A stretch of 45,026 nucleotides of DNA. Origin: Bacteroidaceae bacterium. GTDB taxonomy: Bacteria > Bacillota > Clostridia > Oscillospirales > Oscillospiraceae. The stretch covers positions 1 to 45,026 of the forward strand of contig CAVFGM010000017.1 in the NCBI GenBank assembly GCA_963621955.1, read 5' to 3'. This document shows positions 12,976-45,026 of the stretch, piece by piece. Position 1 is the stretch's first letter, and each line of letters opens with the position of its first letter. The position numbers were made by a program, and so were the translations under genes. The notes beneath the pieces were generated by a model, which did not search any database, had not been told where the DNA came from, and worked only from the letters and a program-made list of their open reading frames with translations.

Positions 12976-13020
12976 GGGAATCTCCTTGTTGTTTCTTTAA
13001 GTGTGGCGGATATTGCGGTG

Positions 13021-13239: not shown

Positions 13240-13583
13240 TCCGCCGTCTCCTTCATCAGGCCGAGCTTTTCGCACGCAGTGAGAAAGGCTCTGTCCATTT
13301 TGGCATACTCCGCGCCGACGCATCTTGTGCGCGCGACGATGATGATGTCGTAGCCCGTTTTCAGGGCAGGGGCATTGAGCCGGTAGATCTCCCGGAGCCT
13401 GCGGCGCACCCTGTTGCGGACGACGGCGTGCCCGAGCTTTGTGGACACGGTGTAGCCCGTGCGGTTGTGTGCCTCGCGGCTGCGGCGGCAGTACACCACC
13501 ATATAAGGCGTGACCGCGCTTTTGCCTTTGGAGTAGAGCCGGCGGAAATCACTGTTCTTTTTTAGCGTGCATCTGGCGTCCAA
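13236..13583 (-). CDS. rnpA: ribonuclease P protein component
   Basis: 115 aa. [11 protein letters not shown] ... [19 protein letters not shown] (RNR motif). Downstream of rpmH. Confidence 0.9.
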
Positions 13584-15271: not shown

Positions 15272-15310
15272 TTTTCTTTCCTCCAATTCTTCCATCGGAA
15301 GCAGGGACGT

Positions 15311-15455
15311 AAAAAAGCCGCGGGACATTTATCCTGCGGCTTTGGAGAGCATCTCTGTTTCCTACGCCGGCATTACCCGGATCAGGTTCATGGGTTTTGA
15401 GATTCATGTTTATCTCATCTCAGCCGGGCCTACCCAGCTCCCCGTGTTCAATTGC
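15311..15455 (-). promoter_or_regulatory. TPP (THI-box) riboswitch with terminator expression platform
   Basis: The minus strand reads cacGGGGAGCtgggtaggcccgGCTGAGAtgagataaacatgaatctcaaaACCCatGAACCTGATCCGGGTAATGCCGGCGTAGGAAAcag (aptamer, about 15358-15447). This matches the THI element consensus. It is followed by the hairpin AAAGCCGCAGG...CCCGCGGC plus T6 (15311-15343), about 40 nt before the thiT ATG. Confidence 0.9.
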
Positions 15456-19800: not shown

Positions 19801-22800
19801 GACTTTTCGCCGCTCTATGACAAGGTGCGCGGCCTGTTCTATATCTGCTATGACACTATAAACAATGCCGGCAGCGGCGGCTGGTACGACCTCATGGCGA
19901 GCGAAGCGGTGCTGACAAGCTACATTGCCGTCGCGAAAGGGGATGTGCCGATGCGGCACTGGCGTGCCCTGAGCCGCGCGCAGCTGCAGAAGGACGGGTA
20001 CCGCGGCCTTGCGAGCTGGACGGGGACGATGTTTGAATACCTCATGCCGGCGCTGTTCCTGCCGCTCTACCGGGCGAGCCTGCTCTTCGAGAGCAGCCGC
20101 TTCTGCCTGTATGTGCAGAAGCGCCGCCATTTTGCGGGAAAACCCTGGGGCATATCCGAGAGCGCGTTCTATTCGCTTGACGCCTCCTTATGCTACCGCT
20201 ATAAGGCGCACGGCTGCCCTGACCTCGCTCTCAAGCGCGGGCAGGAAAACGACATGGTCATCTCTCCCTACAGCAGCTTTCTTGCCCTTGCGGTCGACCC
20301 TATCGCCGCGGTGCGCAATCTGCGCCGCCTGCGCGATATCGGGGCTTACGGGCGCTGGGGCTATATAGAGGCGCTGGACTTTACTCCCGGGCGCTGCCGC
20401 CGTGCGGACGGAGAGCAGGTGCGCTGCTACATGGCGCACCATGTCAGCATGAGCCTGCTCGCCGCGGCGAATGCGGCGGACGGCGGCTGTGTGCAGAAGC
20501 TGTTTATGGCGGATGCGTCAATGGCGGCGTACACGCTGCTGCTTCAGGAGAAGCTGCCGGACTCCGGCGTCGTGATGCGGCGGGACAGATCTCCCGTACC
20601 GGAGCGCCCGCGCCAGTACGATAAAAGCCGCTGGGAGCTTCGCGGGAGCGAAGCGGACGCCGGGGCTCACGCCTGCCTGCTCTCAAACGGCGCGTACAGC
20701 ATCCGCGTCACGGACGACGGGCAAAGCGCCGCGTTCCTGGGCGGCTGCTGTGTCTACGACTGCAGGCGCCCGGAGGACACGCTCAGTCTCAGCCTCAACG
20801 GAAAAAGGCTGCTGCCCGCTGCCGGAAAATACGCATGGACACTGAGCGAGGATCACGCCGCATGGAGCTTTGAATCGGACGGCGCGCAGTGCACCGTGAC
20901 GCTTGCAGCCATCGACGGTGAGCTTGGAGAGCTTACCGAGGTGCAGCTGCGCGGGGCGGGGCGCGCGGAGCTTGAACTCGGCTTTCGCCCGATCCTCGCC
21001 GCGCTGCGCGACGCAGAGAGCCACAGCGCATACTGGAAGCTCGGCATGACGGCGCAGGAGGGTGAAAACTTCATCCTGCTGCACCGGCTGCCGAAAGGCG
21101 ATAAGCCGGGGATATGGCTGTGCCTTGCATGTGATCACCCGGCCCATTTCACGGCGGACGAGCAGGGCGGCGCGGAAGCACTCATTTCCCCGCAACTGCG
21201 CGCGGCGGTGACGGTAACTCAGCCGCGAGCGGGTCAGGCGGCCACGCTGCGTTTTGCCCTCTGCATCGGGACGGACGCGCAGTCGGCCCGAGACGGCGCG
21301 GCGCGCATATTATCTTCCGGAGACTGCGGCGGGAGCATGCCGGACGCAGCGGCGATACACCTCGGCATGAACGCGGCGGAGCTTGGCGCGGCGATGGAGC
21401 TGGTGCTGCCGCTGTGGAGAAACGCGCTCTCAAACGCCGCGCCGCAGAGCGAGCTGTGGCGCTGCGGTATCTCCGGTGACCTGCCGGTGATATGCTGCGA
21501 CGGCGGTGCGGTGGAGACGGAAAAGCTATTGCGGCGCTTCTGCCTGCTCAAAAGCTGCGGGCTCGACGCGGAGCTTGTTTACCTCACACGCGAGCAGGGC
21601 GAATACCTCCAGCCGCTGCTGCGGCACATCGGGCAGGTGCTCGCGCCGGTCGGGCTGGAAGCACTGATCGGGAGCCCCGGCGGCGTGTTCACGGCGCCGC
21701 TCGAGGCCGCCGAAACAGTGAAGAGCCGCGCCGCTGTCGTCATAGGTGAAGCGCAGAAGCAGTATCACCCGCTGCATGAACCGGAGCTGAGCGCCCGCCG
21801 TGCTGTAGATTCTGCCCCGGAGCACAGCTGGGACAGCGCAGGATTCACATTTGAAGTAAACGACACTCTCCCTGCGCGGATATGGCAGCACATCATCACA
21901 AACGGCTGTCTCGGAGCGATAGCCGCAGATATCGGCCCGGCGGGGCTGTGGTACAAAAACGCGCGGGAGATGCCGCTCATCGCACCGCCGGTGGATATAT
22001 ATGATGTACGCAGCCCGGAGCGTTTGTACGTCATGTATGGCGGCAAGCCTGTCAGCCTCTTTGCCGCGAACGACGGCTTCACTTGCCGCGTTAGCTTCGC
22101 GCCGGGATGCGCGGAGTGGGAAAAGGAGATCGGCAAGAACAGGATCAGGACGCGCCTGTTCATCCCGCAGGGGCTGGACACACGCGTGCTGCTTATCGAC
22201 GGGGCAGACGGACTGCCGCTCGTCTGGGAGCTTGAGCCAGCCCTCGGCGGGAAGAACGGAGCCTGCCTGCGCATCGAGGAGGAGCCGGGGCTTATCCGCC
22301 TCTCAAGCCCGGATTCGTATTATCCCGGCCTGCAGATGCTCATCGGGAGCAGCGCAGAGTTTGACGCGGAGACGGACTTTTTCCCCGCCGCGCTGCGCAT
22401 AAAGATGAACTCCGATGCAAAGACTGTGCTCTGCTGCGGCTGCTGCACGGAGACGGAGCTGCGCGAGCTGTGCACACCGGACACTGCTTCATCGCTCCTG
22501 AGCGCGGTATCCGCACGCTGGGCGAGACTGCTCGGAGCGTTTTCGTTGCGCTGCGGAAACAGTGCGCTGGAGCACTATATGAACGGCTGGGCGGTCTATC
22601 AGACCGTCGCCTGCCGCCTTGAGGGGCGCAGCAGCATATACCAGAGCGGCGGCGCGCTCGGCTTCCGCGATCAGCTTCAGGACAGCATAAACCTGCTGCT
22701 CATAAACCGCGGTTGCGCAAGGGAGCGCATACTCGACTGCTGCCGCCATCAGTATGCCGAGGGCGACGTGCTGCACTGGTGGCACCCGCACCCGGACGGC

Positions 22801-23916
22801 GACCGCGGCGTGCGCACGCGCTGCTCGGATGACCTGCTGTGGCTCGTATGGGCGCTGTGCGAATATGTCGAGGCCACGGGAGAGGAGGAACTGTGCTCCA
22901 TTGAGGAGCCGTATATTTTCTCCCTGCCGTTAAAAGCTGAGGAACACGACCGCTATGAGCGCCCTGAGAAGTCCGCAAAGAGCGCAGCGGTGCTCGAGCA
23001 CGCCCGCGCGGCGCTTGAATGCTGCATACGCCGCGGCTTCGGAAAGCACGGTCTGCCATACATCGGCAGCGGCGACTGGAACGACGCGCTTGACAGAACC
23101 GGCGGCGAGAGCGTGTGGCTGGGCTGGTTCTTTGCCCACTGCGCCGCGCGCTTTGCGGAGCTGTTAGAAAGGCTCGAAGCCGATGGCGCGGAGCGGTACA
23201 GAAAGTACGCCGCCGAGGCCGGGGGCGCGGCGGATGCGGCCTTCAACGGGAAATGGTACCTGCGCGCGTTCTATGCCGATGGGGAAGCGCTCGGCGGCGG
23301 GGAGCGCATAGACTCCGTGGCGCAGAGCTGGGCAGTGCTCTCGGGCTTCGGCTCTTCGATGCGCGCCGCCTCGGCGATGGATTCGGCGCTGTTCCGGCTC
23401 TGGGACAGGGAGCACAGGCTCATAAGACTGCTCGACCCGCCGTATTCCGACCGGGAGCGCAGCCCCGGCTATATCACCGGCTACGGCGAGGGCTTCCGCG
23501 AAAACGGCGGGCAGTACACCCACGGGGCGATATGGCTCGCCATCGCAGCGCTGCGCCTCGGGAAATATGCCGAGGGGACGGCAATGCTCGAAACACTGCT
23601 GCCGGAGACGCACGATGTATGCCGCTATCAGGCGGAGCCCTTTGTGCTCCCGGCGGATATAAGCACGGCGAGGGGGCATGAGGGGCTTGCGGGCTGGACA
23701 TGGTACACGGGTTCCGCGGGCTGGTACTTCCGCGCGGTGACGCGGGAACTGCTGGGTCTGCGCATGAGAGACGGGAGACTTTATATAGACCATCCCGTGC
23801 TGCCGGAGTTTTCCGTGAAATGGACGGACGACGCGGGGAGCGTGCACACAATAGAGCGCAGCCCCGGCGGGATAACCGTTGACGGCAAGAGCTATGACGG
23901 CAAAGGGACGCCTTAA
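16891..23916 (+). CDS. cyclic beta-1,2-glucan synthase-like giant protein (GT84-like transferase + glucoamylase-like middle region + GH94 phosphorylase-like C-terminus)
   Basis: 2341 aa. TM segments flank a GT-A domain with ITLDADT (D-A-D at 18301-18309) and RWIRGDWQ. The middle region has PPDNFQEQPPTGTAHRTSPTNIG, NWYDT, STVDSGN and FEYLMP. The C-terminal region has GALGFRDQLQDS, HWWHP, GSGDWNDALD (23071-23085) and ENGGQYTHGAIW, as in GH94/ChvB-NdvB proteins. Confidence 0.8.
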   Translation: MDSMNLAPYIDNERLADYAVSCARLLKSTGTQSGTEAALRLHESVRELRRCRDTLHRRYTGAPAVPSGCEWLLDNWYMVQREGPAAEDELRRARSLRRCRDGLIITELCRTLLQSGHGRLTEQRCRVFLEAFQSVTVLRRCELYLFPAAMRAAVIQALAAACRDMLNSSDAEAYAQELEALFSSLRLLSSMDMERLLDSVDVCSAILSRDPTGDYPRMDRETKAEYLRRLEIMAAQRDVEEHTLASNLIEKAQAENRHVGFLLLREPGRWGAALYIAANVLFTLFISLCISFSLGSLWLAALLLLPVSELVKAAVDFLLMRVVRPRPMPRLDLSDGVPEEGKSICVISVILGSCDAQRLESLRLASRREGKNLSFGLLADLPGAATAETPRDAELLRNAQSAINALNEKYSGGFYLFTRRRSYNGESYSGHERKRGALIELAKLLCGENSELSVTGDEAALIGTRYIITLDADTRIYPGSLSLLIGAAMHPLCTPVIDEGSNVVVSGHAIIHPRIETELESANSTDFSLIFAGAGGCDPYCSLCGELYMDAFGSGGFAGKGLIDPKALLRCTSERFPNGRILSHDALEGAYLRGAYMSDAEFSDAFPDKPLAYFKRQNRWIRGDWQNARWIFARELSDIDRFRLFDSLRRSLVAPLTFIAILCGFFMPAPGLALAAWAALLALLSSLFLSFIDRSLSRREHVRLKRHTRLLTGAGGAIVRTFMRLWLLPFEAWVSAAAILTALWRMLISHRKLLQWQTFAQTSGGEQLGENVRAMWVSVVTGVLLMAFSPAIIGKSAGFMWLLSPAASAALALPAYKGAELAARDRELLRSAMAACWRYLKDFSAEEDNFLPPDNFQEQPPTGTAHRTSPTNIGLALAAAAVSAECGIVPRKEAAGYISRAAAALEKMPRCMGHYYNWYDTRTLAPLSPPYISTVDSGNMYAGLLCAANALDTWGEAELSSRLRAIMAGMDFSPLYDKVRGLFYICYDTINNAGSGGWYDLMASEAVLTSYIAVAKGDVPMRHWRALSRAQLQKDGYRGLASWTGTMFEYLMPALFLPLYRASLLFESSRFCLYVQKRRHFAGKPWGISESAFYSLDASLCYRYKAHGCPDLALKRGQENDMVISPYSSFLALAVDPIAAVRNLRRLRDIGAYGRWGYIEALDFTPGRCRRADGEQVRCYMAHHVSMSLLAAANAADGGCVQKLFMADASMAAYTLLLQEKLPDSGVVMRRDRSPVPERPRQYDKSRWELRGSEADAGAHACLLSNGAYSIRVTDDGQSAAFLGGCCVYDCRRPEDTLSLSLNGKRLLPAAGKYAWTLSEDHAAWSFESDGAQCTVTLAAIDGELGELTEVQLRGAGRAELELGFRPILAALRDAESHSAYWKLGMTAQEGENFILLHRLPKGDKPGIWLCLACDHPAHFTADEQGGAEALISPQLRAAVTVTQPRAGQAATLRFALCIGTDAQSARDGAARILSSGDCGGSMPDAAAIHLGMNAAELGAAMELVLPLWRNALSNAAPQSELWRCGISGDLPVICCDGGAVETEKLLRRFCLLKSCGLDAELVYLTREQGEYLQPLLRHIGQVLAPVGLEALIGSPGGVFTAPLEAAETVKSRAAVVIGEAQKQYHPLHEPELSARRAVDSAPEHSWDSAGFTFEVNDTLPARIWQHIITNGCLGAIAADIGPAGLWYKNAREMPLIAPPVDIYDVRSPERLYVMYGGKPVSLFAANDGFTCRVSFAPGCAEWEKEIGKNRIRTRLFIPQGLDTRVLLIDGADGLPLVWELEPALGGKNGACLRIEEEPGLIRLSSPDSYYPGLQMLIGSSAEFDAETDFFPAALRIKMNSDAKTVLCCGCCTETELRELCTPDTASSLLSAVSARWARLLGAFSLRCGNSALEHYMNGWAVYQTVACRLEGRSSIYQSGGALGFRDQLQDSINLLLINRGCARERILDCCRHQYAEGDVLHWWHPHPDGDRGVRTRCSDDLLWLVWALCEYVEATGEEELCSIEEPYIFSLPLKAEEHDRYERPEKSAKSAAVLEHARAALECCIRRGFGKHGLPYIGSGDWNDALDRTGGESVWLGWFFAHCAARFAELLERLEADGAERYRKYAAEAGGAADAAFNGKWYLRAFYADGEALGGGERIDSVAQSWAVLSGFGSSMRAASAMDSALFRLWDREHRLIRLLDPPYSDRERSPGYITGYGEGFRENGGQYTHGAIWLAIAALRLGKYAEGTAMLETLLPETHDVCRYQAEPFVLPADISTARGHEGLAGWTWYTGSAGWYFRAVTRELLGLRMRDGRLYIDHPVLPEFSVKWTDDAGSVHTIERSPGGITVDGKSYDGKGTP

Positions 23917-34834: not shown

Positions 34835-34854
34835 TTTATATTGAACCAAAACTG

Positions 34855-34883
34855 TTGCGAAACGGCGGGAAATGGATTATACT
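34855..34883 (+). promoter_or_regulatory. candidate promoter of the glycosylation operon
   Basis: TTGCGA (34855-34860), 17-nt spacer, TATACT (34878-34883), 41 nt upstream of the ATG at 34925. Confidence 0.35.
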
Positions 34884-34924
34884 GTTAATCTGTATTATAA
34901 TGTGATAAACTCAGGAGAGTTCTG

Positions 34925-36505
34925 ATGAAAGAAAAATTCCGCCGCTGCTGGGCGCTGGTGCTTGTTTTTGTGATCGTCACGGGAGTGTGCTTCCTGTTTG
35001 CCGGGCGCAAATCCGGAATGTTCATTGACGAGATATATGCCTACGGCCTGTCGAACAGCCACTATGCCCCGTTCCTGACAGACATAAAGGACGGGGAGAT
35101 GGTCGGCAAGACCTTTACCCGGCAGGAGCTTTTCGACTATGTCGCCGTAACGGACGGGGAGCGCTTCGATGCCGGCTCCGTCTATTATAATCAGGTGCAT
35201 GATGTTCACCCGCCGCTGCACTACTGGCTGCTGAACGCTGTCTGCTCGCTGTTCCCGGACACTTTCAGCAAATGGACGGGGCTTGCGCTCAACTACGTGC
35301 TGTATATGCTCACGATGTTCGTGCTGTATAAGACCGTGCGCAGGCTCGGCTGGAGCCGCGGCTGCGGCACTGCTGCGGCTGTGCTCTACGGGCTGAGCGT
35401 GATAGGCCTGTCGACCTTTGTGATGATCCGCATGTACATGCTCCTGACGCTCCTCACGGTCGTGCTGATGTACCTGATCGTCTGCCTGATGCAGGAGTTC
35501 AGACCGAAGTACTGCATCCTGACCGGCCTTGTGCTGCTGGCGGGGCTGATAACGCAGTATTATTTTGTGTTCTACGCTTTCTTCCTCTGCGCGGCGTATG
35601 TGATATACGCGCTTGTGAAGAGAGAATACAAGGCGCTGGCGTGGTTTGTTCCCTGCGCACTCGTCGGGGCGCTGAGCCTGCTGCTCGTGTTCCCCGCGTG
35701 CATGAACCATCTTTTTGCCGACAACATCGTCTCCGGCGGGAACGCGATGGAGAACCTGCGCAACTTCGCGCAGTACCCCGTCAGGCTCAAGACCTTTATA
35801 AGCTTTATAACGCACGGGCTCAAGGCGGCGATTATCATTGCGCTGCTGGCCATCATCGCGCTCGGCGTATATTTCAAGAAGTTCAAAGCGGCGGCAAAGG
35901 ACAAAAGGCTCGACCTGCGCGCGCTGGTGCTGATAGTCCCGGCGTTTGTCGTGCTCGTGATCGTCGCGCTCATCTCCCCGGTGGACGAGCCGCGGTATAT
36001 CTATAACCTTGTTCCGGCCTTTGTGCTGGCGGCGTGCCTGCTGCTGTACCTGCTGGAGCAGAGCCTTGGCAGCTTTGAGCGGGAGGGGCTTATCAAGACG
36101 GCGGCGCTGCTGTGCATCATGGGTCTGGCGCTCTGGCAGGCGCGCTGCGCCCCGCCGGATTATCTCTACCCGGAGTACGCGGAGTATGACGCGATAGTCG
36201 CGGAACATGCGGAAGATAAGTGCGTCTACTTCTCCGACAACAGGTTCGAGGCCATCACGCAGGATCTGCTTCAGCTCATGGCCTTTGACGATTTCTATGT
36301 GAGCGATGATACCGAGCTCACCGGCGCGCTCGACTATGTCGGCGGTGTGGACGAGTTCGTCGTCTACGTGGACATAAGCGAGTTCTGGTCGAGCGGCTAT
36401 GATCCCGATAAAATTATCTCCGCGCTCGCTGACTCCTCCGATTATGACAAGGCGGAGCTGCTGTACCAGAACGGCCTGAGCGCGACATATCTGATTTCCA
36501 AGTGA
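34925..36505 (+). CDS. GT-C fold membrane glycosyltransferase (GT39/GT83, ArnT/PMT-like)
   Basis: 526 aa with more than 10 TM segments. The first extracytoplasmic loop carries the acidic motif FIDEIYAYG. A C-terminal soluble domain is present. Followed by GtrB- and GtrA-like genes. Confidence 0.6.
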   Translation: MKEKFRRCWALVLVFVIVTGVCFLFAGRKSGMFIDEIYAYGLSNSHYAPFLTDIKDGEMVGKTFTRQELFDYVAVTDGERFDAGSVYYNQVHDVHPPLHYWLLNAVCSLFPDTFSKWTGLALNYVLYMLTMFVLYKTVRRLGWSRGCGTAAAVLYGLSVIGLSTFVMIRMYMLLTLLTVVLMYLIVCLMQEFRPKYCILTGLVLLAGLITQYYFVFYAFFLCAAYVIYALVKREYKALAWFVPCALVGALSLLLVFPACMNHLFADNIVSGGNAMENLRNFAQYPVRLKTFISFITHGLKAAIIIALLAIIALGVYFKKFKAAAKDKRLDLRALVLIVPAFVVLVIVALISPVDEPRYIYNLVPAFVLAACLLLYLLEQSLGSFEREGLIKTAALLCIMGLALWQARCAPPDYLYPEYAEYDAIVAEHAEDKCVYFSDNRFEAITQDLLQLMAFDDFYVSDDTELTGALDYVGGVDEFVVYVDISEFWSSGYDPDKIISALADSSDYDKAELLYQNGLSATYLISK

Positions 36506-36516
36506 GGTGCAAAAAA

Positions 36517-37440
36517 ATGCTTTCCGTGATCCTGCCTTCCTATAATGAAGAAAAAATGATCGCCAAGGCGACAGAGCGCATGGCGGAGATCCTCCAGCCG
36601 GAGAAGATCGACTATGAGCTGCTGTTCATTGACGACGGCTCCCGTGACAGCACATGGGCGCAGATAAACGAGGCCGCCGAAAAGGACAGCCACGTCGTCG
36701 GCGTACACTTCAGCCGCAACTTCGGCAAGGAGGCCGCGATGTTCGCGGGGCTGGAGCAGGCGAGGGGCGACTGCTGCGTCGTCATCGACTGCGACTTGCA
36801 GCACCCGCCGGAGAAGATAGTCGAGATGTACCGGCTCTGGGAGCAGGGCTATGAGGTCGTCGAGGGCATCAAGGAAGACCGCGGCGAGGAGAGCGGGCTG
36901 CACAAGTTCGCTGCCAACAGCTTCTATGGGCTCATCAGCAAGGCCACGGGGATGGACATGTCCTCCTCGTCGGATTTCAAGCTCCTTGACCGCAAGGTCG
37001 TTGACACGCTCAACAGTCTGCCAGAGCGCAACGTGTTCTTCCGCGCGCTCTCGTTCTGGGTCGGCTATAAGAAGACCAGCGTCAGCTACTGCGTGCAGGA
37101 GCGCACCGAGGGCGTGAGCAAGTGGTCGACAAAGTCGCTCATCAAATACGCGCTGACGAATATCAGCTCGTTCTCCTCCGCGCCGCTGCATATCGTGACG
37201 GTGCTCGGCTTTATCATGCTCGCGGTATCGGTCGTGCTCGGGATCATCGCGCTGGTGCAGAAGATATCCGGCGTCGCCCTCGGCGGGTTCACGACGGTCA
37301 TACTTCTCCTGCTGTTCTCAGCGAGCATAATTATGATAAGCCTCGGCATAATCGGCTACTACATCGCCCGCATCTATGACGAGATAAAGGGCAGGCCGAG
37401 ATATATCATTTCCCGTATCTGCGGCAGGGAGGACAAATAA
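36517..37440 (+). CDS. polyprenyl-phosphate glycosyltransferase (GT2, GtrB/ArnC/CsbB-like)
   Basis: MLSVILPSYNEE ... FIDDGSRDST ... VIDCDLQHPP. Two C-terminal TM helices. ATG 36517; the track start at 36502 is a GTG inside the upstream stop region. Confidence 0.85.
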   Translation: MLSVILPSYNEEKMIAKATERMAEILQPEKIDYELLFIDDGSRDSTWAQINEAAEKDSHVVGVHFSRNFGKEAAMFAGLEQARGDCCVVIDCDLQHPPEKIVEMYRLWEQGYEVVEGIKEDRGEESGLHKFAANSFYGLISKATGMDMSSSSDFKLLDRKVVDTLNSLPERNVFFRALSFWVGYKKTSVSYCVQERTEGVSKWSTKSLIKYALTNISSFSSAPLHIVTVLGFIMLAVSVVLGIIALVQKISGVALGGFTTVILLLLFSASIIMISLGIIGYYIARIYDEIKGRPRYIISRICGREDK

Positions 37441-37442
37441 GG

Positions 37443-37883
37443 ATGATCGAGAAAATAAAGGCGTTGTGCGTCAAGTACCGCGAGTTTCTTGTGTATTTCA
37501 TCGTCGGCTGCCTTACGACGCTTGTCGCCGCCGCTGCGCGCTTCGGCTTCAACTTCCTGTTTTTCGGCGGGACGCTGCACCCGACCTTCGCGCAGAACAC
37601 GGCCCTTGCGATAGTCGACTGGGTCGCGGGCGTCGCCTTTGCATACCCCACGAACCGCAAATGGGTCTTCCAGAGCAAGAACCCGAACATCCTTGCCGAA
37701 GCGGGCGGTTTTGTCGCCTCGCGCCTTGCGACGCTCGGGATGGACTGGGCGGTCACGCAGCTGCTCGGCACGGTGCTGGGCATAAACGTATATGTGACGT
37801 GGTTCATAAAGTCTGTGCTCGTGTTCCTCGGCAACTACATCCTCAGCAAGCTTTTTGTTTTCAAGAAGAAAAAAGAAGAATAA
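37443..37883 (+). CDS. GtrA family membrane protein (putative lipid-linked sugar flippase)
   Basis: 146 aa with 4 TM segments. REFLVYFIVGCLTTLV ... YPTNRKWVF ... NYILSKLFVF is the GtrA-like pattern. Confidence 0.8.
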   Translation: MIEKIKALCVKYREFLVYFIVGCLTTLVAAAARFGFNFLFFGGTLHPTFAQNTALAIVDWVAGVAFAYPTNRKWVFQSKNPNILAEAGGFVASRLATLGMDWAVTQLLGTVLGINVYVTWFIKSVLVFLGNYILSKLFVFKKKKEE

Positions 37884-37890
37884 AAATTTG

Positions 37891-37920
37891 AAGGCTTCCC
37901 CATCAAGGGGAAGCCTTTTT
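37891..37920 (+). terminator. intrinsic terminator after gtrA-like gene
   Basis: 9-bp stem GGCTTCCCC (37893-37901) / GGGGAAGCC (37907-37915), followed by TTTTT. Confidence 0.8.
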
Positions 37921-38020
37921 CAAATCATTTATTCTCTCCGCGGCTTTTTTCTTGTACTCGGGACGCAGTTGTGGTATCCTACTAAAGATATCTATTTCTC
38001 TTTGAAAGGAAGAATCATCC

Positions 38021-39085
38021 TTGAAAATCGTTGTTTTAGGCGGCGGGATAAGCACCGAGCGCGAGGTCGCTCTCGTCACGAGCACCTCCGTGTGCAGGGC
38101 TCTGCGCAGCCTCGGCCATAAGGCTATATTCGTCGATATGTTCATGGGGCTTGAAAATTATGACGGCGCGCTTGAGGACGCCTTTGATGTCCCCGACGGC
38201 TTCTGCGGCAGCGTCGCCGTGGAAAGAAAAGCGCCCGACCTTGAGGCGGTCAAGGCCTCGCGCAGGCTCAGGAGCCCGAGCCGTCTCGGCAAGAACGTGC
38301 TCGAGATATGCTCCCTTGCAGACTGCGTCTTTCTCGGCCTGCACGGCGCCGACGGCGAGGACGGCAAAATTCAGGCCGCGCTCGATCTGCTCGGCGTTCC
38401 CTATACCGGCTCCGGTCCGCTCAGCAGCGCGATGGCAATGGATAAGGCCGTTGCCAAGCGCGTCATGGACAGCTACGGCATCCGCACCGCGCCGTGGCGC
38501 GAGGTCGTCTACGGTGAGGACGATATCCCCGGCCTGCTCGATACGCTGCCGCTGCCCTGCGCGGTGAAGGTCGTGAACGGCGGCTCGTCCATCGGCGTGG
38601 AGCTGCCCGATACGCGCGAGGAGCTGGAGGCCGCCCTGCGCAATATCCTTAAGTACGGCGACCGCATCGTCGTCGAGGAGAAGATACACGGCACCGAGGT
38701 CACGGTCCCGGTTCTCGGCGGCCGCTGCCTGAGCCCGATCGAGATCGTCCCGCCAGAGGGCTCGACCTTTGACTATGTCGCCAAGTACCAGAGCGGCGAC
38801 GAGGGCGCGCGGGAGATATGCCCCGCCCGCATAAGCGAGAAGGACAGACAGACTGTCTGCGAAGCGGCGCTGAAGTTCCATAACGCCCTTGGACTTTCGG
38901 TCTATTCCCGCAGCGATTTCATCATCGACAGCGAAGGCCGCGCATGGTGCCTTGAGGTCAACACCCTGCCCGGAATGACCCCGAACAGCCTCATTCCCAA
39001 GGCCGCGAAGCTTGAGGGGATTGAATATCCGCAGCTGTGCGAGGAGATAATACGCCTGTCGCTTGAGTGCAAGAGCAAAAAATAA
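38021..39085 (+). CDS. ddl: D-alanine--D-alanine ligase
   Basis: 354 aa, TTG start with GAAAGGAAG RBS (38004-12). KIVVLGGGISTEREVAL, LHGADGEDGKIQ, MDKAVAKR and EVNTLPGMT are ATP-grasp Ddl blocks. Candidate promoter: TTGTAC (37952-57), 17 nt, TATCCT (37975-80). Confidence 0.9.
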   Translation: MKIVVLGGGISTEREVALVTSTSVCRALRSLGHKAIFVDMFMGLENYDGALEDAFDVPDGFCGSVAVERKAPDLEAVKASRRLRSPSRLGKNVLEICSLADCVFLGLHGADGEDGKIQAALDLLGVPYTGSGPLSSAMAMDKAVAKRVMDSYGIRTAPWREVVYGEDDIPGLLDTLPLPCAVKVVNGGSSIGVELPDTREELEAALRNILKYGDRIVVEEKIHGTEVTVPVLGGRCLSPIEIVPPEGSTFDYVAKYQSGDEGAREICPARISEKDRQTVCEAALKFHNALGLSVYSRSDFIIDSEGRAWCLEVNTLPGMTPNSLIPKAAKLEGIEYPQLCEEIIRLSLECKSKK

Positions 39086-39219
39086 TCGGAAATATCAAAT
39101 TCTTAACCGAAGTTAACACTTTCTTGATGTTTTACATAGGCATTGTGGTAAAATGCTCTCTTAGAAAAAAGACAGACAATGCTGCAAGAATGCATATCGC
39201 AAATCATCGAGGATGGACT

Positions 39220-39624
39220 ATGAGAGAAAAAATGGCGCGCTTCATGGCCGGGCGCAACGGCAACGACCAGTTAAATCGTTTTCTGCTGCTCGTCGATATC
39301 GTGCTGCTTCTGATCGCGGCGATATTCAAGGACGGGATAGGCAGATATGTATATCCGCTTGTATTCGTGCTGCTGGCATACGCATACTTCCGCATGCTCT
39401 CCCGCAATGTTTACAAGCGCCGCGAGGAAAACGGAAAGTATATCCGCGCAAAGTACAAGGTCTCCGCCGCGCTCAGGGTGCGGCACGAGCGCTGGGTGCA
39501 GCGCAAGGACTATAAGTTCTTCACCTGCCCCAACTGCAAGACGGCGCTGCGCGTTCCGAGAGGGCACGGCAAGGTCAATATAGTCTGCCGCAAGTGCGGT
39601 ACGTCCTTCACGGGGAAGACCTGA
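39220..39624 (+). CDS. membrane protein with C-terminal zinc ribbon
   Basis: 134 aa from ATG 39220 (GAGGATGG RBS). Two TM helices, then FTCPNCKTALRVPRGHGKVNIVCRKCG (CxxC...CxxC). The track ORF extension from 39067 is rejected. Confidence 0.6.
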   Translation: MREKMARFMAGRNGNDQLNRFLLLVDIVLLLIAAIFKDGIGRYVYPLVFVLLAYAYFRMLSRNVYKRREENGKYIRAKYKVSAALRVRHERWVQRKDYKFFTCPNCKTALRVPRGHGKVNIVCRKCGTSFTGKT

Positions 39625-39625
39625 T

Positions 39626-40450
39626 ATGTTCGGGTATCTTGTTGCAGCATCGGAGCTGCTTGAAGAGGAACAGCAGCAGCGCTATAAGGAGTGCTACTGC
39701 GGGCTGTGCCGCAGCCTTGACCGCTGCTTCGGCTCCGCTGCAAGGCTTACGCTCAATTATGACCTGACCTTTCTTGTGCTGCTGCTCTCCTCACTCTATG
39801 AACCGGAGGAGGAGCACGGAGAGAGCGTCTGTCCGCGCCACCCGGCCAAGCGGCAGCAGTGGATGACGAACGGGATAAGCGGCTATGCCGCGAACATGAA
39901 CGTCGCACTGGCTTATCTCAAATGTCTGGACGACTGGCATGACGACCGCAGCCTCACGGCCTACGCCGAGGCGAGGACGCTCAAGCACTGGTATGAGGAG
40001 ATCTCCGAGCGCTATCCGCGGCAGTGCGGAGCGATGCAGCGCTCTATCGAAAAGCTCGGAGAGATAGAGAAATCGGGGCTATGCGAGCCTGATGCCGCCG
40101 CCGACACTTTCGGCGAGCTTATGGAGCAGCTCTTTATCTATAAGGACGACCGCTGGTCGGATACGCTTGGCCGGATGGCTCACGCACTGGGGCGCTTTAT
40201 CTACCTCTGCGACGCGATCATCGACCTTGAGGACGACGCCGCCTCCGGAAGCTATAACCCGTTCAGGGACTATGCCGGGCGGGAGGATAACGAGCAGCGC
40301 TTCAGGGACATACTGAAGATGCAGCTCGGCGAATGTGTGTTCTATTTCGATAAGCTCCCGCTGGTACAGGACGCGGGACTGATGCAAAATATACTGTGTG
40401 TAGGGCTGTGGGCACAATTCAATAAGAAATACAGCAGAAAGGACCTGTAA
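39626..40450 (+). CDS. DUF5685-like protein
   Basis: 274 aa. MFGYLVAASELL...YKECYCGLCRSL...LTLNYDLTFLVLLLSSL matches my memory of the Firmicute DUF5685 N-terminus. Starts 1 nt after the previous stop. Confidence 0.5.
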   Translation: MFGYLVAASELLEEEQQQRYKECYCGLCRSLDRCFGSAARLTLNYDLTFLVLLLSSLYEPEEEHGESVCPRHPAKRQQWMTNGISGYAANMNVALAYLKCLDDWHDDRSLTAYAEARTLKHWYEEISERYPRQCGAMQRSIEKLGEIEKSGLCEPDAAADTFGELMEQLFIYKDDRWSDTLGRMAHALGRFIYLCDAIIDLEDDAASGSYNPFRDYAGREDNEQRFRDILKMQLGECVFYFDKLPLVQDAGLMQNILCVGLWAQFNKKYSRKDL

Positions 40451-41146
40451 ATGTATCAGGATCCATACAAGGTTCTGGGCGTCTCCCCCGACGCATCGGA
40501 CGAAGAAATAAAAAAAGCGTACCGCGAGCTTACGAAAAAATACCACCCCGACCTCAACCCCGGTGACGAAGAGGCCGCGCGGAAGATGAACGACATCAAC
40601 ACTGCCTACGACCAGATAAAGAACGGCACCGCCAAGGCAGGGGCTTATGGTCAGCAGGCCAATAACGGCTACGGCGGGGCTCAGTACGGCCAGTATGAGC
40701 AGTACGGCTGGAACCCGTGGACGAGCTGGAGCGATTTTACCGGCTGGTCGAATGCGCAGCAGAACCGTCAGACCGAACGCAGCGAATACACCGCCGCAAA
40801 AAATTACATCCGCAACGGCATGTACCGCGAGGCGCTCAACGCACTGTCCGGAGTTCCGATGTCGGAGCGCGACGGCAAGTGGTACTACCTCTCCGCCGGG
40901 GCGAACATGTACATGGGCAACAAGGTAACGGCGCTGGAGCATGCCAAGCGCGCGGTCGAAATAGAGCCGGGCAACGAGGAGTACCGCCGCCTGCTCGAAC
41001 AGCTGCAGAGCGGACGCGATTTCTATGACAGCTACTCCACCGGCTACGGCCACCGCGTGAATCTCAGCCCGCTGTGGCTGGCGCTGTGCGGCTCTCAGCT
41101 GCTGTGCGGCCAGACCTGCGGCTGCCCTATGATCTACTGCTTCTGA
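40451..41146 (+). CDS. J-domain protein with Q/G/Y-rich linker, TPR-like region and Cys-rich hydrophobic C-terminal tail
   Basis: [33 protein letters not shown] carries the HPD motif. The C-terminus is [24 protein letters not shown]. Starts immediately after the DUF5685 stop. Confidence 0.8.
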
Positions 41147-41180
41147 ATATTATAAAATCACATCGCCGCTCATTAGATAG

Positions 41181-41250
41181 GTGTTCGTAAAACAGGTTTA
41201 GACCGAAATTACGAAATGAGCATCTGTCAGGCAGGGTTGGGAAACAAAAA
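41181..41250 (+). repeat. left copy of a 70-nt direct repeat flanking the AT-rich islet
   Basis: GTGTTCGTAAAACAGGTTTAGACCGAAATTACGAAATGAGCATCTGTCAGG is identical (51 nt) to 43699-43749. The next 19 nt match at 16/19 positions. Confidence 0.9.
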
Positions 41251-41252
41251 TG

Positions 41253-41298
41253 AAAAATGAGTGATGCCAAGTTGAACGACTGAACATCACTCATTTTT
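41253..41298 (+). terminator. hairpin + T-run after the J-domain gene / left repeat
   Basis: AAAAATGAGTGATG (41253-41266) pairs with CATCACTCATTTTT (41285-41298), with an 18-nt loop. Confidence 0.6.
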
Positions 41299-41419
41299 TA
41301 TTTCATCGACACTTATTACGAAATCACGGAGAAATTTCTATTATGAAGAGTAATTTGACTTATACCTTCTGCGGAGATTCCTACTACATTCCTAATGCTC
41401 AAGATGTGTCGAATGTTGG

Positions 41420-41448
41420 TTGATAATTTTTCGGTAAAGATGTATACT
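41420..41448 (+). promoter_or_regulatory. candidate promoter of the ATPase-HNH operon
   Basis: TTGATA (41420-41425), 17-nt spacer, TATACT (41443-41448), 71 nt upstream of the ATG. AAAAGAGG RBS before 41520. Confidence 0.55.
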
Positions 41449-41519
41449 TTAACAAACGAAACCGTTCACGGAAAAACGTACTCTTCATAATATAACTCGC
41501 AAAACGAAAAGAGGCTAAG

Positions 41520-42770
41520 ATGGATAACTATATCACTCATTTACACGCACAAAACACAGGCATTTTTGAAGAACTAGACATCTCCTTCAATAAGAAGTTT
41601 AATTTTATTGTTGGTCCCAACGGATGTGGTAAGACTTCCATACTAAAATGCATAGCTTTATCTTTAGCTCCAAGTGATTCCAGAGGATTTAGATATGGCA
41701 ATAATTCTGCTGTTTGGTTTGATGCTACATATGACAATAAAAACTACAGAGTAGGATTAGGTGAAGGATGGGTTTCCAATATTGATGAGTATAGGCAAGC
41801 AAGTCATAGTTCATGGAATAAGCCACCTCAGCAAGAAGGTATGCTATCATATACCGTTAACAAGCTTGAGGTAGAAAACATCAATATTACTCCATTAATT
41901 TTGGGGGCATATCGAAGAATTGCATATCAAAGAATTGAAGGTATGCATCGAGAACCGTCATTTGCAGAACAAAGAAAGAATTATCATTCCTCTGGATTTA
42001 AGAATATCGAAGGAGGATCGCTTCCTAATGTAAAGCAGTGGATGATTAATCGATATTTTGAAATCGAGAAAGACTGGGCGACTGTATATAAACGAAACTG
42101 GGACTGGATTATTGATAATCTTGAAAATCTTGGTCCATCAAATTGCAAACTCCAATTCAAAGAGATTAAACGAGATTTGGAGCCTATGTTTACGCTCCAA
42201 AACATAGATTGTTATCTGGAAGAAGTTTCCGCAGGCTTTCAAGCCGTTTTATCATTAGTTTTTGCAATTGTGGAATGGATTGAGGGAACTAACGATGAGC
42301 AATATGCATACATTCCCGAGGCTACCGGAACAGTCATAATTGATGAATTGGATGTTCATCTACATCCTGAATGGCAGTTGACTATTCGTAAATCATTAGC
42401 TACCCTTTTCCCAAATCTTCAATTTATAATAACTACACATTCGCCACATTTGATAACTTCCGCTGAGGCAGGTGAACTTATTGTACTTCCTGAATTGAGT
42501 AGAAGGGTATGCGTAGCGCCGACAGCGCAAAAGTATTCTGGATGGAATACCGATGAAGTATTGGAAGAGATTATGGGGGTTTCTAATCTTGAGAACAAGG
42601 AGTACTTGATTCTCTTAAACCAAGCAATGGACTATGTCGAAACACGAGATATTGATGCTCTTAAGGAAGCTATTATAAAGCTGAAAGACATAGTTCATCC
42701 TTCAAACACCATTCTTCACGTTCTGAAGGTGAAGCTTGCCCAATTAGAATTGGGGGATGAAAATGATTAA
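41520..42770 (+). CDS. ABC/SMC-type (AAA_15/AAA_21-like) ATPase, PtuA-like (Septu)
   Basis: 416 aa. Walker A GPNGCGKTS (41613-41639), signature-like VSAGFQ, Walker B VIIDELDVHLHPEW and H-loop TTHSP. No TM segments. Overlaps the downstream HNH gene. Confidence 0.7.
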   Translation: MDNYITHLHAQNTGIFEELDISFNKKFNFIVGPNGCGKTSILKCIALSLAPSDSRGFRYGNNSAVWFDATYDNKNYRVGLGEGWVSNIDEYRQASHSSWNKPPQQEGMLSYTVNKLEVENINITPLILGAYRRIAYQRIEGMHREPSFAEQRKNYHSSGFKNIEGGSLPNVKQWMINRYFEIEKDWATVYKRNWDWIIDNLENLGPSNCKLQFKEIKRDLEPMFTLQNIDCYLEEVSAGFQAVLSLVFAIVEWIEGTNDEQYAYIPEATGTVIIDELDVHLHPEWQLTIRKSLATLFPNLQFIITTHSPHLITSAEAGELIVLPELSRRVCVAPTAQKYSGWNTDEVLEEIMGVSNLENKEYLILLNQAMDYVETRDIDALKEAIIKLKDIVHPSNTILHVLKVKLAQLELGDEND

Positions 42771-43509
42771 AATACAAAAGCCGACTGCGCCACAAGTTTT
42801 GTTGGATAATAAAGCTACCTGGACCCAAAACTTGTTAGATGCAATAAATACCTATGGTGGATATAGCAAAATCCCAGAATCCGAAAAGAATAGTTTACTA
42901 TCTCATTATAGACACAAAGATATCCAGACTGCTTTATTTGCAAGCAGTCACTATAAATGTGCATTTTGCGAATGTATTCCCGGAGAAAGCAGTCATATTG
43001 AGGTCGAACATTTTGAACCCAAGTCACTGTATCCTGATTTAGCATTTGAGTGGGATAATCTCTTGCCATCATGCCGAATATGCAATGAAGAAAAATCAGA
43101 TGCCGATACACAAACAAACCCAATAATTAACCCTGCAATTGAAGATCCTGAACAATTTTTGACTTATTCGTTTTTGCGGATTAAACCTCTCGCCGGATCT
43201 GGCCAAGAACAGAAAGCGCAACAGACAATTGAGGTGTGTAATCTTAATTGTGAGCGCCTTTATAGTGCAAGGTCAGCATTAATGAAATCCTTAACAGAAT
43301 ATATCGACGAATTAAAAGACAAAATCAATTGGATTTCCGAAGCAGATACTGATCAAAAAAGGAAGGTTCGCATTACTAAACTAAAGAATTCTTTGGCAGT
43401 TATTGATTCTCTGACAACTGCTGAAAGTGCCTTTTCTGGATATGCCAAGTGGTTTATTCGGGAATGTCCTGAATACCAGGAGGCAAAACGAATTGTAGCG
43501 AGTAGATGA
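42763..43509 (+). CDS. HNH nuclease of the TIGR02646 type, PtuB-like (Septu)
   Basis: HYKCAFCECIPGESSHIEVEHFEPKSLYPDLAFEWDNLLPSCRICNEEKSD gives CxxC...H...N...CxxCN (42958-43092). ATG 42763 lies 6 nt after GGGGGA; an alternative ATG at 42757 is the track start. Confidence 0.75.
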   Translation: MIKIQKPTAPQVLLDNKATWTQNLLDAINTYGGYSKIPESEKNSLLSHYRHKDIQTALFASSHYKCAFCECIPGESSHIEVEHFEPKSLYPDLAFEWDNLLPSCRICNEEKSDADTQTNPIINPAIEDPEQFLTYSFLRIKPLAGSGQEQKAQQTIEVCNLNCERLYSARSALMKSLTEYIDELKDKINWISEADTDQKRKVRITKLKNSLAVIDSLTTAESAFSGYAKWFIRECPEYQEAKRIVASR

Positions 43510-43698
43510 ATGGCTGCTATATTTAATAATCACACTGATACTTGAAGAGCCGAAAAGGTTCCGGGCATCGTTCACATGAGTGACAGCGCCATACATATCA
43601 GAAAAGAAAACGGGGTGACTTCAGTCGCGCCGCCCTTTGAAAACACAAGGCTTCACTTTTGTGGTTTTAGCTGTTTTGCGACCATCCGGCATTGATGA

Positions 43699-43768
43699 GT
43701 GTTCGTAAAACAGGTTTAGACCGAAATTACGAAATGAGCATCTGTCAGGAAGGATTGGGTAACAAAAA
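43699..43768 (+). repeat. right copy of the 70-nt direct repeat
   Basis: See the left copy: 67/70 identity, same orientation. Confidence 0.9.
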
Positions 43769-43807
43769 GCCGCTATATTCAGGTTTTTACTGGATATAGC
43801 GGCTTTT
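43765..43807 (-). terminator. intrinsic terminator of the XRE gene (usable in both directions)
   Basis: AAAAGCCGCTATAT (43765-43778) pairs with ATATAGCGGCTTTT (43794-43807). On the minus strand it follows the XRE stop (43810-43812) and ends in a T-run. Confidence 0.7.
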
Positions 43808-43809
43808 GC

Positions 43810-44658
43810 TTATTTATGCTTTCTTTTGCTTTTTCCGTGCGGTAACTGTGATCTTGCTTTTCCACGCTGACTGATAGGATTTTTCATATACTTGGACTTT
43901 TTAAGAATACCAATCAGCGAAACAAATTCTTCCTTCGTGAGCGCATCGCAGTCGAGTCCGATAGTCGCAAGGTATGCGCGAATCTTCTTTTCCTCAGAGC
44001 TGCCCTCGAAGTTTATAGCTTCTTGCATCTGCACCTGCACGGCTGCTGCGAGAGAGCTTTCATCCGCAGTCATGGTGTCGGGGCGATGGTCGTTCCGAAT
44101 GTCGCGGAGGATGCCTTTCAGATCATCCGCAATCAGGCTTCCAAAATACTCGTCCTCTCTGATCTGCGCGACTTCCAGCGTCCGCAAGTACAGGTCATTT
44201 GCATCGCCGCCGTTCTTCATCAATGCCATCTGCCGGACAGCTTCCAGCACGGTGTTCATGTCGTTGACCCGCATATCTGCGATCCGGTCAACGTAAATCT
44301 CGGCATCCAGCATGAACCACTGGAAATCCTTGTGGCAGATCAGCTCCGACAGCAGCCGGTGGTTGAATTTGCCTGTCCGCAATACTTCGATTGCATCATC
44401 ACCCAAATGCAGAGCGTCCAGCTCTGTGTTTGGGTGATTTTTTTGTTCTGTCAGCCCCAGCAGGTAATCGGTGGACACGCCGTAGAACTTTGCCAGCTCC
44501 ACCATGCTGAACGGGCTGATGTCCTTGAAATCGTCGGCTTCGTATTTTCCCAGCGCGGACTTTGAAATGCCTGTTTCCGCAGAAAGCTGTTCCAGCGTCA
44601 GACCGCGCTCCACGCGCAGGTCTTTGAGCCGTTCCTGAATGGTGAGTTTTGGCTGCAT
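43810..44658 (-). CDS. XRE-family helix-turn-helix regulator with extended C-terminal domain
   Basis: 282 aa. IQERLKDLRVERGLTLEQLSAETGISKSALGKYE is an HTH_3 motif. About 200 aa of helical C-terminal region and a basic tail follow. GGGAGGA RBS. Confidence 0.8.
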   Translation of the reverse strand: MQPKLTIQERLKDLRVERGLTLEQLSAETGISKSALGKYEADDFKDISPFSMVELAKFYGVSTDYLLGLTEQKNHPNTELDALHLGDDAIEVLRTGKFNHRLLSELICHKDFQWFMLDAEIYVDRIADMRVNDMNTVLEAVRQMALMKNGGDANDLYLRTLEVAQIREDEYFGSLIADDLKGILRDIRNDHRPDTMTADESSLAAAVQVQMQEAINFEGSSEEKKIRAYLATIGLDCDALTKEEFVSLIGILKKSKYMKNPISQRGKARSQLPHGKSKRKHK

Positions 44659-45026
44659 AGCGGTGTCCTCCCTTCAAATTTCTGCCCTTTTCCGGTCTTG
44701 TCCATAAGCGTGGAAATCTGCGTTTTTCGGCGCGTTTTCCTACCTCTTGGATATACGGGAGAGGGCTATATTTTTCGCTAAAATGGTCTTGCAATCGCAC
44801 CTGAACCTTGAAAATTGCATGACCGTCCGAACGGGATATGTCCCCCAGCGAAGTAACCGCCATGACCGCGAAAGCGTGAGCGTACCAACGGGGACAAAAC
44901 GCCGGGAGCGATCCTCCGGGCAGGAACGACGTTCGGAAAGAGCGGCAAAATCGAATGTAAAAATCAAAGCAAGTGAAAGCGGCGAAATAGTTTTCTGCTC
45001 TGTGCGGTTATCTGCATGGAACAGAG

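Follow-up and report, generated by a model that had tools for sequence, protein, structure and literature searches.

A type I Septu operon as the probable sole cargo of a 2.52-kb cis-mobilizable-like remnant in the terminator of a DnaJ-like gene

Introduction

Stand-alone type I Septu (PtuA/PtuB) is reportedly the family of Doron et al. 2018. A gene pair of this kind lies at positions 41520 to 43509 of a 45,026-nt stretch of contig CAVFGM010000017.1, from an Oscillospiraceae-type bacterium; the whole stretch is called the window here. The pair is read as a type I Septu that is the sole cargo of a 2.52-kb remnant resembling a cis-mobilizable element (CIME). The remnant is in tandem with a second element, and the island sits in the terminator of a DnaJ-like gene. 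The probability of this reading is put at roughly 85%.

The stand-alone PtuAB complex forms an inflammasome-like assembly whose nicking activity falls as ATP rises and which reportedly senses a phage tail fibre; retron PtuA is set apart by an N-terminal extension and a helical flap (PMC12819146). A Septu from clinical E. coli cuts tRNA-Tyr in its variable loop only upon infection, requires its Walker A, Walker B and HNH residues, and has an abortive-infection-like phenotype (PMC13096335). Large serine recombinases (LSRs) with a DUF4368 domain form a multi-targeting TndX-like clade, of which one analysed example has a TT core (PMC10083194). A CIME is a decayed element that keeps attL and attR, and tandem accretion has been described (PMC5704250, PMC12084326).

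The ptuA and ptuB genes

The original prediction described two overlapping plus-strand genes, and the open reading frames (ORFs) are present at 41520-42770 (416 aa) and 42757-43509 (250 aa). Gene 1 stops at 42768-42770 and gene 2 has alternative starts at 42757 and 42763, as it had stated. The genes and a putative promoter are as follows.

41520..42770, + strand: ptuA, Septu ABC/SMC-type ATPase gene, 416 aa, from profile, Pfam, PDB and motif evidence
42763..43509, + strand: ptuB, Septu HNH nuclease gene, 248 aa (250 aa from the 42757 start)
41420..41448, + strand: predicted promoter-like site TTGATA-17-TATACT upstream of ptuA, from a consensus scan with 10/12 matches

The start at 42763 is the more likely one for ptuB. 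It is favoured because a GGGGGA Shine-Dalgarno-like run lies 5 nt upstream of this ATG whereas it directly abuts the ATG at 42757, because the PADLOC profile match of PtuB begins at residue 3 (numbered from the 42757 start), and because metagenome gene calls give a PtuB of 248 aa. With this start the two genes overlap by 8 nt (ATGATTAA), which suggests translational coupling.

Every motif quoted in the original prediction was found in the translations. PtuA has the Walker A motif GPNGCGKTS at residues 32-40 (K38), a signature-like VSAGFQ at 236-241, and VIIDELDVHLHPEW at 272-285, in which Walker B, VIIDE, occupies 272-276 (D275/E276). The H-loop TTHSP follows at 305-309. PtuB, numbered from the 42757 start, has CAFCE at 68-72, HIEVEHFEPK at 80-89 (H85) and WDNLLPSCRICNEEK at 99-113; the HNH core residues H85, N101 and N110 and two CxxC pairs are all present. 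Thus the ATPase and HNH catalytic motifs of the two proteins are intact.

A 17-nt inverted repeat, 94% complementary with its arms 126 nt apart (41336-41352 and 41479-41495), flanks the predicted ptuA promoter. It may represent an operator pair, or resemble an invertible promoter; the segment between the arms is not inverted in any of 10 related loci.

Identity of the pair

PtuA matches the PADLOC profile PDLC00279 at E=1.8e-163, with residues 2-413 on profile positions 3-414 of 416. PtuB matches PDLC00336 at E=4.9e-97, with residues 3-248 on positions 1-245 of 250, and both matches reach the C-termini of the proteins. Pfam assigns AAA_15, AAA_21 and SMC_N to PtuA and HNH, above cut-off, to PtuB; TIGR02646 scores 69.9 bits on PtuB against a cut-off of 52.15. 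The top PDB match of PtuA is the stand-alone Septu PtuA 8ee4 (E=3e-20), with which its Walker A, Walker B and H-loop align motif to motif. PtuB matches the retron I-A PtuB in the PDB at E=3e-10, and its alignment to solved PtuB chains spans the CxxC/HNH catalytic core and the C-terminal helices. The end-to-end profiles, the 8ee4 match and the TIGR02646 score bear out the Septu assignment first proposed from the letters of the sequence.

The pair might instead be the effector of a type I-A (Ec78/Eco7-like) retron whose reverse transcriptase (RT) and msr/msd have been lost or separated. The nearest NCBIfam equivalogs are named "retron Ec78 effector PtuA/PtuB", TIGR02646 is labelled a retron-system HNH family, and several PDB matches are retron PtuA or PtuB chains. 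However, the equivalogs score well below their cut-offs (NF041760 for PtuA, 144.1 bits vs 500; NF041761 for PtuB, 83.8 vs 150), and the best PADLOC and PDB matches are to stand-alone Septu. The window PtuA has 416 aa against ~550 aa in retron PtuA, the alignments to retron chains cover ~205-356 only, and the retron N-terminal extension and helical flap are unmatched in it. The original prediction had remarked on the missing retron partner, and indeed the unit contains no RT ORF and no Rfam or structured-RNA match; four homologous loci are likewise without an RT neighbour. A retron effector is therefore a highly improbable identity for the pair.

Equally improbable is that the pair belongs to another ATPase-nuclease system (Gabija/OLD-like, PARIS AriA/AriB or AbiL/AbiEii-like) or to a new subtype. 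PtuA does match the PADLOC AriA profile at E=1.3e-25, AAA_21 is described as a "putative AbiEii toxin" family, and there is a weak N-terminal match to the OLD-family structure 6p74. These matches are only partial, and the full-length PtuA match exceeds them by more than 100 orders of magnitude. The Pfam scan shows neither a Toprim nor a DUF4435 or AriB-like domain, the second protein is an HNH matched end to end by a PtuB profile, and the subfamily has its own PADLOC profiles, whose lengths of 416 and 250 fit both proteins. The best profile family, which the original prediction had singled out as a check, is Septu and not OLD/Gabija, PARIS or AbiL.

The homologues point the same way. A search with PtuA found 823 proteins at E<=1e-10; hundreds of homologues have 413-420 aa, and among the 120 matches listed most fall in this range and form a continuum of identity from 95% to 52%. 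In three unrelated contexts, genes of homologues at 75%, 65% and 52% identity are each overlapped by a gene for a partner protein of 202-249 aa, and these partners are 70%, 58% and 49% identical to the window PtuB, respectively. The same annotated pair occurs on a Bacillus mycoides megaplasmid at ~66% nucleotide identity, and relatives of this Septu subfamily are also found on B. thuringiensis megaplasmids. The expected co-occurrence of the pair in other genomes thus holds, in the divergent homologues and in the B. mycoides plasmid. Two further suggestions did not survive. The ATPase, called compact, has the length of its matching profile and is the norm of its clade, since the listed homologues are mostly of 413-420 aa. 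Nor is the pair a divergent subtype, since the Septu subfamily to which it belongs is already catalogued and has the Bacillus megaplasmid relatives. Judged from sequence, the pair has all the defining features of Septu that can be tested in this way, and is a canonical stand-alone type I Septu, neither a retron effector nor a new subtype.

The pair at 52%/49% identity (locus L161, 2379-6865) follows directly downstream of two tyrosine integrases in tandem (Arm-DNA-bind_5, Phage_int_SAM_5, Phage_integrase), a mobile vehicle of another kind for this Septu subfamily.

The left end and its repeat

A 75-nt direct repeat (D1) at 41176-41250 and 43694-43768 flanks ptuAB. The copies are 93% identical with a 49-nt perfect core; a shuffled-sequence control gave 0 matches. 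This repeat around the genes was absent from the original prediction. Each copy marks the left end (LE) of a unit and is followed by a hairpin.

41173..41250, + strand: LE1, left end of the Septu unit, a conserved ~75-nt serine-recombinase element terminus
41248..41303, + strand: terminator-like hairpin and T-run directly after LE1 (inverted repeat I2, 19-nt arms, 95% complementary)
43694..43768, + strand: LE2, left end of the second unit, an L126-like integrative mobilizable element (IME); copy 2 of repeat D1
43760..43812, no strand assigned: bidirectional terminator-like hairpin after LE2 and the XRE stop (inverted repeat I1, terminator scan)

Folding of the DNA gave z = -5.35 for 41165-41310 and z = -5.69 for the 43760-43812 hairpin. 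The hairpin at 41248-41303 would stand in for the host terminator split by the insertion.

Loci outside the window were grouped as cassette loci (L001-L010), LE loci (L012-L035) and right-end loci (L036-L155). The LE core, as a 24-mer, occurs once in each of 24 species-representative gut Clostridia genomes, among them Oscillospiraceae, Dysosmobacter, Hominicoprocola, Ruminococcus, Coprococcus, Christensenellaceae and Anaeromassilibacillus. The DNA to the left of it is different and housekeeping-looking in each of the 24, and in the loci inspected it stops 10-35 nt past the stop codon of a co-directional gene. Every LE copy elsewhere is then followed by a hairpin of differing sequence. In all 24 genomes unique host DNA gives way to conserved element DNA at the LE.

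The 75-nt repeats were also considered as a structured regulatory RNA (riboswitch or small RNA) serving Septu, or as ends of the integron attC or IS200/IS605 kind. Nested inverted repeats lie in the LE and a variable terminator hairpin is always next to it, several LE substitutions keep G-U-type pairing, and 75 nt exceeds what a serine-recombinase half-site needs, which is ~25 nt. Against an RNA, a permissive Rfam scan of 41100-43900 (E<=10) gave chance-level matches only, pair-breaking substitutions are about as frequent as pair-keeping ones, and in several loci the gene downstream of the LE is on the opposite strand. The LE sits at the host/element boundary in 24 genomes, and the empty site described below shows it to be inserted DNA. 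Moreover, the start of the LE is an inverted repeat of the right end, which adjoins a large serine recombinase gene, and neither an integron integrase nor an HUH transposase was seen. The RNA or hairpin-end explanation is improbable, if less so than the retron one, and the LE is taken as the terminus of a serine-recombinase element.

Several candidates were set aside along the way. The LE repeat as a known RNA had no support from Rfam even at the permissive threshold. In the 24 copies, compared by eye, ~5 substitutions keep wobble pairs and ~4 break them, an equivocal covariation signal, now superseded by the element-terminus explanation. Complementarity of the variable GGCrGG part of the LE with the left flank fails in L012 and is likely fortuitous, given the GC-rich half-stems. 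Ends like those of IS200/IS605, integron attC or group II introns, suggested by the hairpins and the terminator targets, were dropped, the ORF ending at the right end being a large serine recombinase.

The ~75 nt of the LE are nearly invariant over the 24 species and several bacterial families. They hold nested inverted repeats, GACAGGTG...CATCTGTC and TTCGTAA...TTACGAA, as well as two TTAGAC motifs. The extra nucleotides are candidates for an accessory recombinase site, for initiation on single strands after conjugative transfer, or for a small RNA.

The right end and the recombinase family

The right end (RE) of the Septu unit meets the second unit without a gap.

43606..43693, + strand: RE1, right end of the Septu unit, homologous to the last recombinase codons and ~90 nt to the junction
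43678..43712, no strand assigned: RE1/LE2 joint, an attP-like imperfect palindrome (GCGACCATCCGGCATT/GATGAGTGTTCGTAAAACA) at the boundary of the tandem units

The P arm of RE1 is 43678-43693. The first ~19 nt of LE1 are the P' arm; they repeat the RE end in inverted orientation and with it make up the attP-like inverted repeat. In general, the usual RE end TTTTACGACCACCCGG agrees with the reverse complement of the usual LE start TTTTACGAACACCTGT, and this imperfect inverted repeat is what the two attP arms of a serine recombinase would look like. The junctions are compatible with a TT central dinucleotide.

The core of RE1 is 86% identical to the right end of L012, and the RE core has at least 120 matches in human-gut metagenomes. 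An ORF of at least 450 aa has its end at the RE in 33 of these loci; many others keep only C-terminal remnants of it. One representative of these ORFs has Resolvase, Recombinase, Zn_ribbon_recom and DUF4368 domains and is thus a large serine recombinase. RE1 keeps only the last few codons of this gene.

The second unit starts at 43694, directly abutting RE1, and runs off the end of the window. Its sequence at 43699-45026 is colinear, at 79%, with 4-1300 of L126, a complete 9.1-kb unit with a MobA_MobL relaxase; the second unit is therefore an L126-like mobilizable element. Its first gene is a regulator.

43810..44658, - strand: XRE/Cro-CI-type helix-turn-helix regulator gene, first of the second unit, 282 aa, Pfam HTH_3 at E=7e-13

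The same gene adjoins the LE also in L015, L028 and L126, and belongs to the second unit, not to Septu. An exact look-up of the window XRE protein found no record.

In several of the relatives, cargo that is defence-like or acts on nucleic acids adjoins the LE, and the zone just inside the LE resembles a cargo hotspot. L028 carries, by eye only, XRE, small resolvase, SIR2-like, GIY-YIG-like and methylase-like ORFs. UvrD-like helicases are found in L017 and L035, a DUF4011/AAA_11 helicase in L022, and a metallo-beta-lactamase-fold protein with an RNase_T exonuclease in L126.

The insertion site

The left border of the Septu unit cuts a terminator of the host.

41154..41172, + strand: left half of the intrinsic terminator of the DnaJ-like gene, the left arm of a split attB, with an A-tract and the half-stem ACATCGCCGCTCA

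A syntenic relative, L156 (PMT_2, GT2, GtrA, Ddl, DUF5685, DnaJ-like), aligns to 34848-41172 of the window at 90.5%. Beyond 41172 the homology is lost; in L156 this point falls within an intact hairpin, ACCGCCGCTCAG-att-CTGAGCGGCGGT, with a T-run behind it, and a GntR/ABC operon begins 100 nt later. L156 thus has the empty site, and because its homology ends inside the intact hairpin the island is placed in the terminator of the DnaJ-like gene. This empty site in a close relative upholds the horizontal acquisition put forward in the original prediction. The G+C content of the unit (41172-43693) is 0.38, with 0.375 in ptuA and 0.377 in ptuB, vs 0.587 in window 1-41146 and 0.503 in the right flank, 43694-45026. 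The AT-rich contrast noted earlier is therefore real, but the flanks do not reach the two thirds G+C assigned to them by eye, and the right flank is itself mobile DNA, not host chromosome.

Other insertions are of the same kind. Complete units in L012, L053 and L067/L082 lie between complementary half-stems of 12-15 nt, with an A-tract before and a T-tract after. A T-run just past the junction marks 50 of the 62 distinct right flanks; control positions drawn at random from these loci averaged 10.7, with 18 as the highest count. Each element of the family brings its own terminator hairpin just inside the LE. From these junctions, the DUF4368 element family appears to insert overwhelmingly in the hairpin loops of intrinsic terminators that lie downstream of host genes. 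At its far end, the window island is predicted to have a DUF4368 recombinase, RE2, and then a CTGAGCGGCG(A/G)TG..TTTT half-terminator followed by the GntR/ABC operon. A complement of the window's left half-stem was sought inside the window and nothing meaningful was found.

An exact look-up of the DnaJ-like protein found only a 1.7-kb contig, broken inside the LE. A second candidate empty site (P0010/L157) was rejected, as it has a hybrid ORF beside a MobL gene instead. In L157 a 245-aa ORF (6171-6908) is 99% identical to the window DnaJ-like protein over 69% of its length and directly follows the MobL relaxase gene where a JGI contig ends; in a related strain, this may represent a further junction with a mobile element, at or within the DnaJ-like gene.

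The Septu unit as a decayed mobile element

The Septu unit, 41173-43693, measures 2.52 kb and has ptuA and ptuB as its sole ORFs. Neither recombinase, relaxase nor transfer genes are found inside it. Because both termini are kept and the recombinase and transfer genes are lost, the unit is CIME-like, and it fits a CIME-like remnant in a tandem accretion with an IME.

The shared cassette is slightly longer, 2,643 bp at 41170-43812, and consists of the Septu unit, LE2 and the next hairpin. Ten loci share it at ~99.5% identity (12 mismatches vs L001). Their left context is unlike that of the window and they have at least 5 different right-hand breakpoints. Homology to other Septu loci begins at 41170 and ends at the 43760-43812 hairpin, and 66 blocks of the metagenome collection have the exact PtuA protein in their index. 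LE1 adjoins two different host half-terminators, that of the DnaJ-like gene in the window and that of an HTH_3 gene inside another element in L001-L010. Since LE1 meets two different half-terminators, the cassette, or a composite bearing it, has integrated at least 2 times. In L006, whose RE is truncated, the right half that matches, GGGAAGCGTTTTT, can be seen past a deletion.

The LE core had 0 matches in IMG/VR viral contigs and the cassette had no match in phage records; the cassette is therefore not phage-borne in those collections. No LE or RE was found around the more divergent PtuA homologues, and so this packaging is specific to the window allele.

Recombinase-less mini-units exist elsewhere in the family: L012 1626-3731, with a MarR regulator and a TauE/SafE exporter, and L067, L082 and L112 of ~2.1 kb. 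L067 and L082 retain only out-of-frame recombinase remnants. Since other mini-units exist, decay to small non-autonomous units is common in the element family and not special to Septu. Mobilisation of the Septu unit would probably be in cis, along with the neighbouring element, or in trans, through a related recombinase.

Proposed mechanism of defence

By analogy with characterised Septu systems, PtuA oligomers would hold PtuB inactive while ATP is bound. Phage infection would release the PtuB nuclease, which would cut tRNA-Tyr and/or DNA. Phage replication would then be halted, at a growth cost to the infected cell. By their likeness to other Septu alleles, the window genes would be expected to protect against phages in a manner dependent on the ATPase and HNH residues.

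The pair may also serve mainly in addiction or stabilisation of its element, or in conflict between elements, with phage defence secondary or absent. As the sole cargo of a decayed element it persists at 99.5% across gut samples and contexts, released PtuAB is host-toxic and Septu is abortive-infection-like (PMC12819146, PMC13096335), and neighbours in the family carry defence-like cargo such as the DUF4011 helicase and the UvrD-like helicase. However, characterised stand-alone Septu systems protect against phages and require an infection trigger, the pair has no evident antitoxin-like labile partner, and defence genes on mobile elements are the norm and no sign of addiction. An addiction role is unlikely, though slightly less so than the RNA reading of the repeats, and it is not exclusive of the Septu reading, with which it is compatible.

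Several points weigh against a functional Septu on an independently mobile remnant. First, the PDB matches of both proteins span limited stretches, and the 8ee7 Septu PtuB chain was not matched by PtuB at E<=0.01. Second, the Septu biochemistry comes from only distantly related Septu and retron PtuAB, and the reported substrates disagree across studies (DNA nicking vs tRNA-Tyr), which makes the effector step uncertain. Third, the ptuA promoter is a consensus match alone. Fourth, the window closes at 45026, before the right end of the composite island and any recombinase. Finally, a solitary Septu unit with a clean RE/terminator junction is absent among the loci, and the independent mobility of the 2.5-kb unit is something we infer.

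Neighbouring genes

The upstream 41 kb is ordinary chromosome, with a GH94 giant protein, M16 peptidases, a TRAP transporter, Ddl, DUF5685 and the J-domain protein. The giant protein is a 2341-aa ORF (16891-23916, + strand) that has a glucoamylase-like domain and, at the C-terminus, a GH94 catalytic domain; it is probably of the cyclic or linear beta-glucan synthase/phosphorylase type. No tRNA was found in the window. The sole Rfam match at gathering score is a distant thiamine pyrophosphate (TPP) riboswitch, RF00059, at 15342-15452 on the - strand (54.7 bits, barely over the gathering score), upstream of a minus-strand ORF at 14699-15328. Two + strand ORFs, one of 812 aa (10915-13353) and one of 185 aa with C-terminal CxxC pairs (39067-39624), had no Pfam match at E<=1e-5. 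The 812-aa ORF, which lies in GC-rich DNA and is overlapped by long antisense ORFs, is possibly no genuine gene.

Significance

For Septu itself the addition is small, a member of a catalogued family in an uncultured high-GC Oscillospiraceae, where defence is experimentally little studied. A complete defence operon nevertheless circulates in the human gut as a 2.5-kb unit, at ~99.5% identity across samples and contexts. The mobile context fits known categories: multi-targeting DUF4368 LSR elements, CIMEs and tandems. In the literature cited here on these categories, neither the terminator-loop preference with its paired replacement terminator nor the reduction of an element of this type to nothing more than a defence cassette was found stated. 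Relative to that literature the novelty is modest and lies in these two points. If the terminator preference and the mobilisation in cis or trans are true, they would give small defence modules one route to spread without mobility genes of their own, and a multi-targeting serine integrase family would have a structured, predictable target class.

A wider proposal can be offered tentatively, with the odds against it. It holds that the Septu operon is packaged as a minimal, recombinase-less cassette with DUF4368 termini only, which would spread in gut Clostridia with recombinases and relaxases borrowed from related elements. The element family would specifically take terminator loops as attB and bring a replacement terminator, and the ~50 extra LE nucleotides would serve a further purpose, for instance in starting single-strand replication, as an accessory recombinase site or as a small RNA.

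Comparison with known systems

Like stand-alone Septu type I (8ee4/8ee7; Septu EcB88), the window pair is a two-gene operon of an ABC-type ATPase and an HNH nuclease, with full-length PADLOC matches, with Walker A/B, signature, H-loop and CxxC-braced HNH intact, and without an accessory RT or RNA. Unlike the studied Septu systems, to which its similarity is remote (PDB E about 1e-20, over partial stretches), it has a shorter PtuA (416 vs 465 aa in 8ee4), resides in an uncultured high-GC Oscillospiraceae-type gut bacterium, and is the only cargo of a recombinase-less mobile unit.

With the effector of retron type I-A (Ec78/Retron-Eco7) the pair shares homologous ATPase and HNH folds and the TIGR02646 match, and the alignment of its PtuB spans the catalytic core and the C-terminal domain. 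In contrast to that retron, the window unit has no RT and no msr/msd, and its PtuA lacks the N-terminal extension and helical flap.

The vehicle resembles integron defence cassettes in being a small module of promoter and defence genes, with repeated recombination sites, head-to-tail with the next unit. However, its ends are serine-recombinase termini and not attC, its target is a terminator and not attI, and no IntI integrase was seen in any locus; the Septu unit is not an integron cassette.

The closest likeness of the vehicle is to CIME/IME tandems and to Tn4451/TndX-like DUF4368 elements, in that the termini are kept while the recombinase and transfer genes are absent from the Septu unit. 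As in the tandems, the unit abuts a related element and forms an internal attP-like joint. As in the Tn4451/TndX-like family, there are full-size relatives with a DUF4368 LSR and a MobA/MobL relaxase, and there are many insertion sites. Unlike known CIMEs, which carry resistance or unknown genes, the unit has a complete defence operon as its cargo. The insertion sites are overwhelmingly terminator-hairpin loops, a preference not found stated for DUF4368 elements in the papers cited here, and each element has a replacement terminator just inside its left end.

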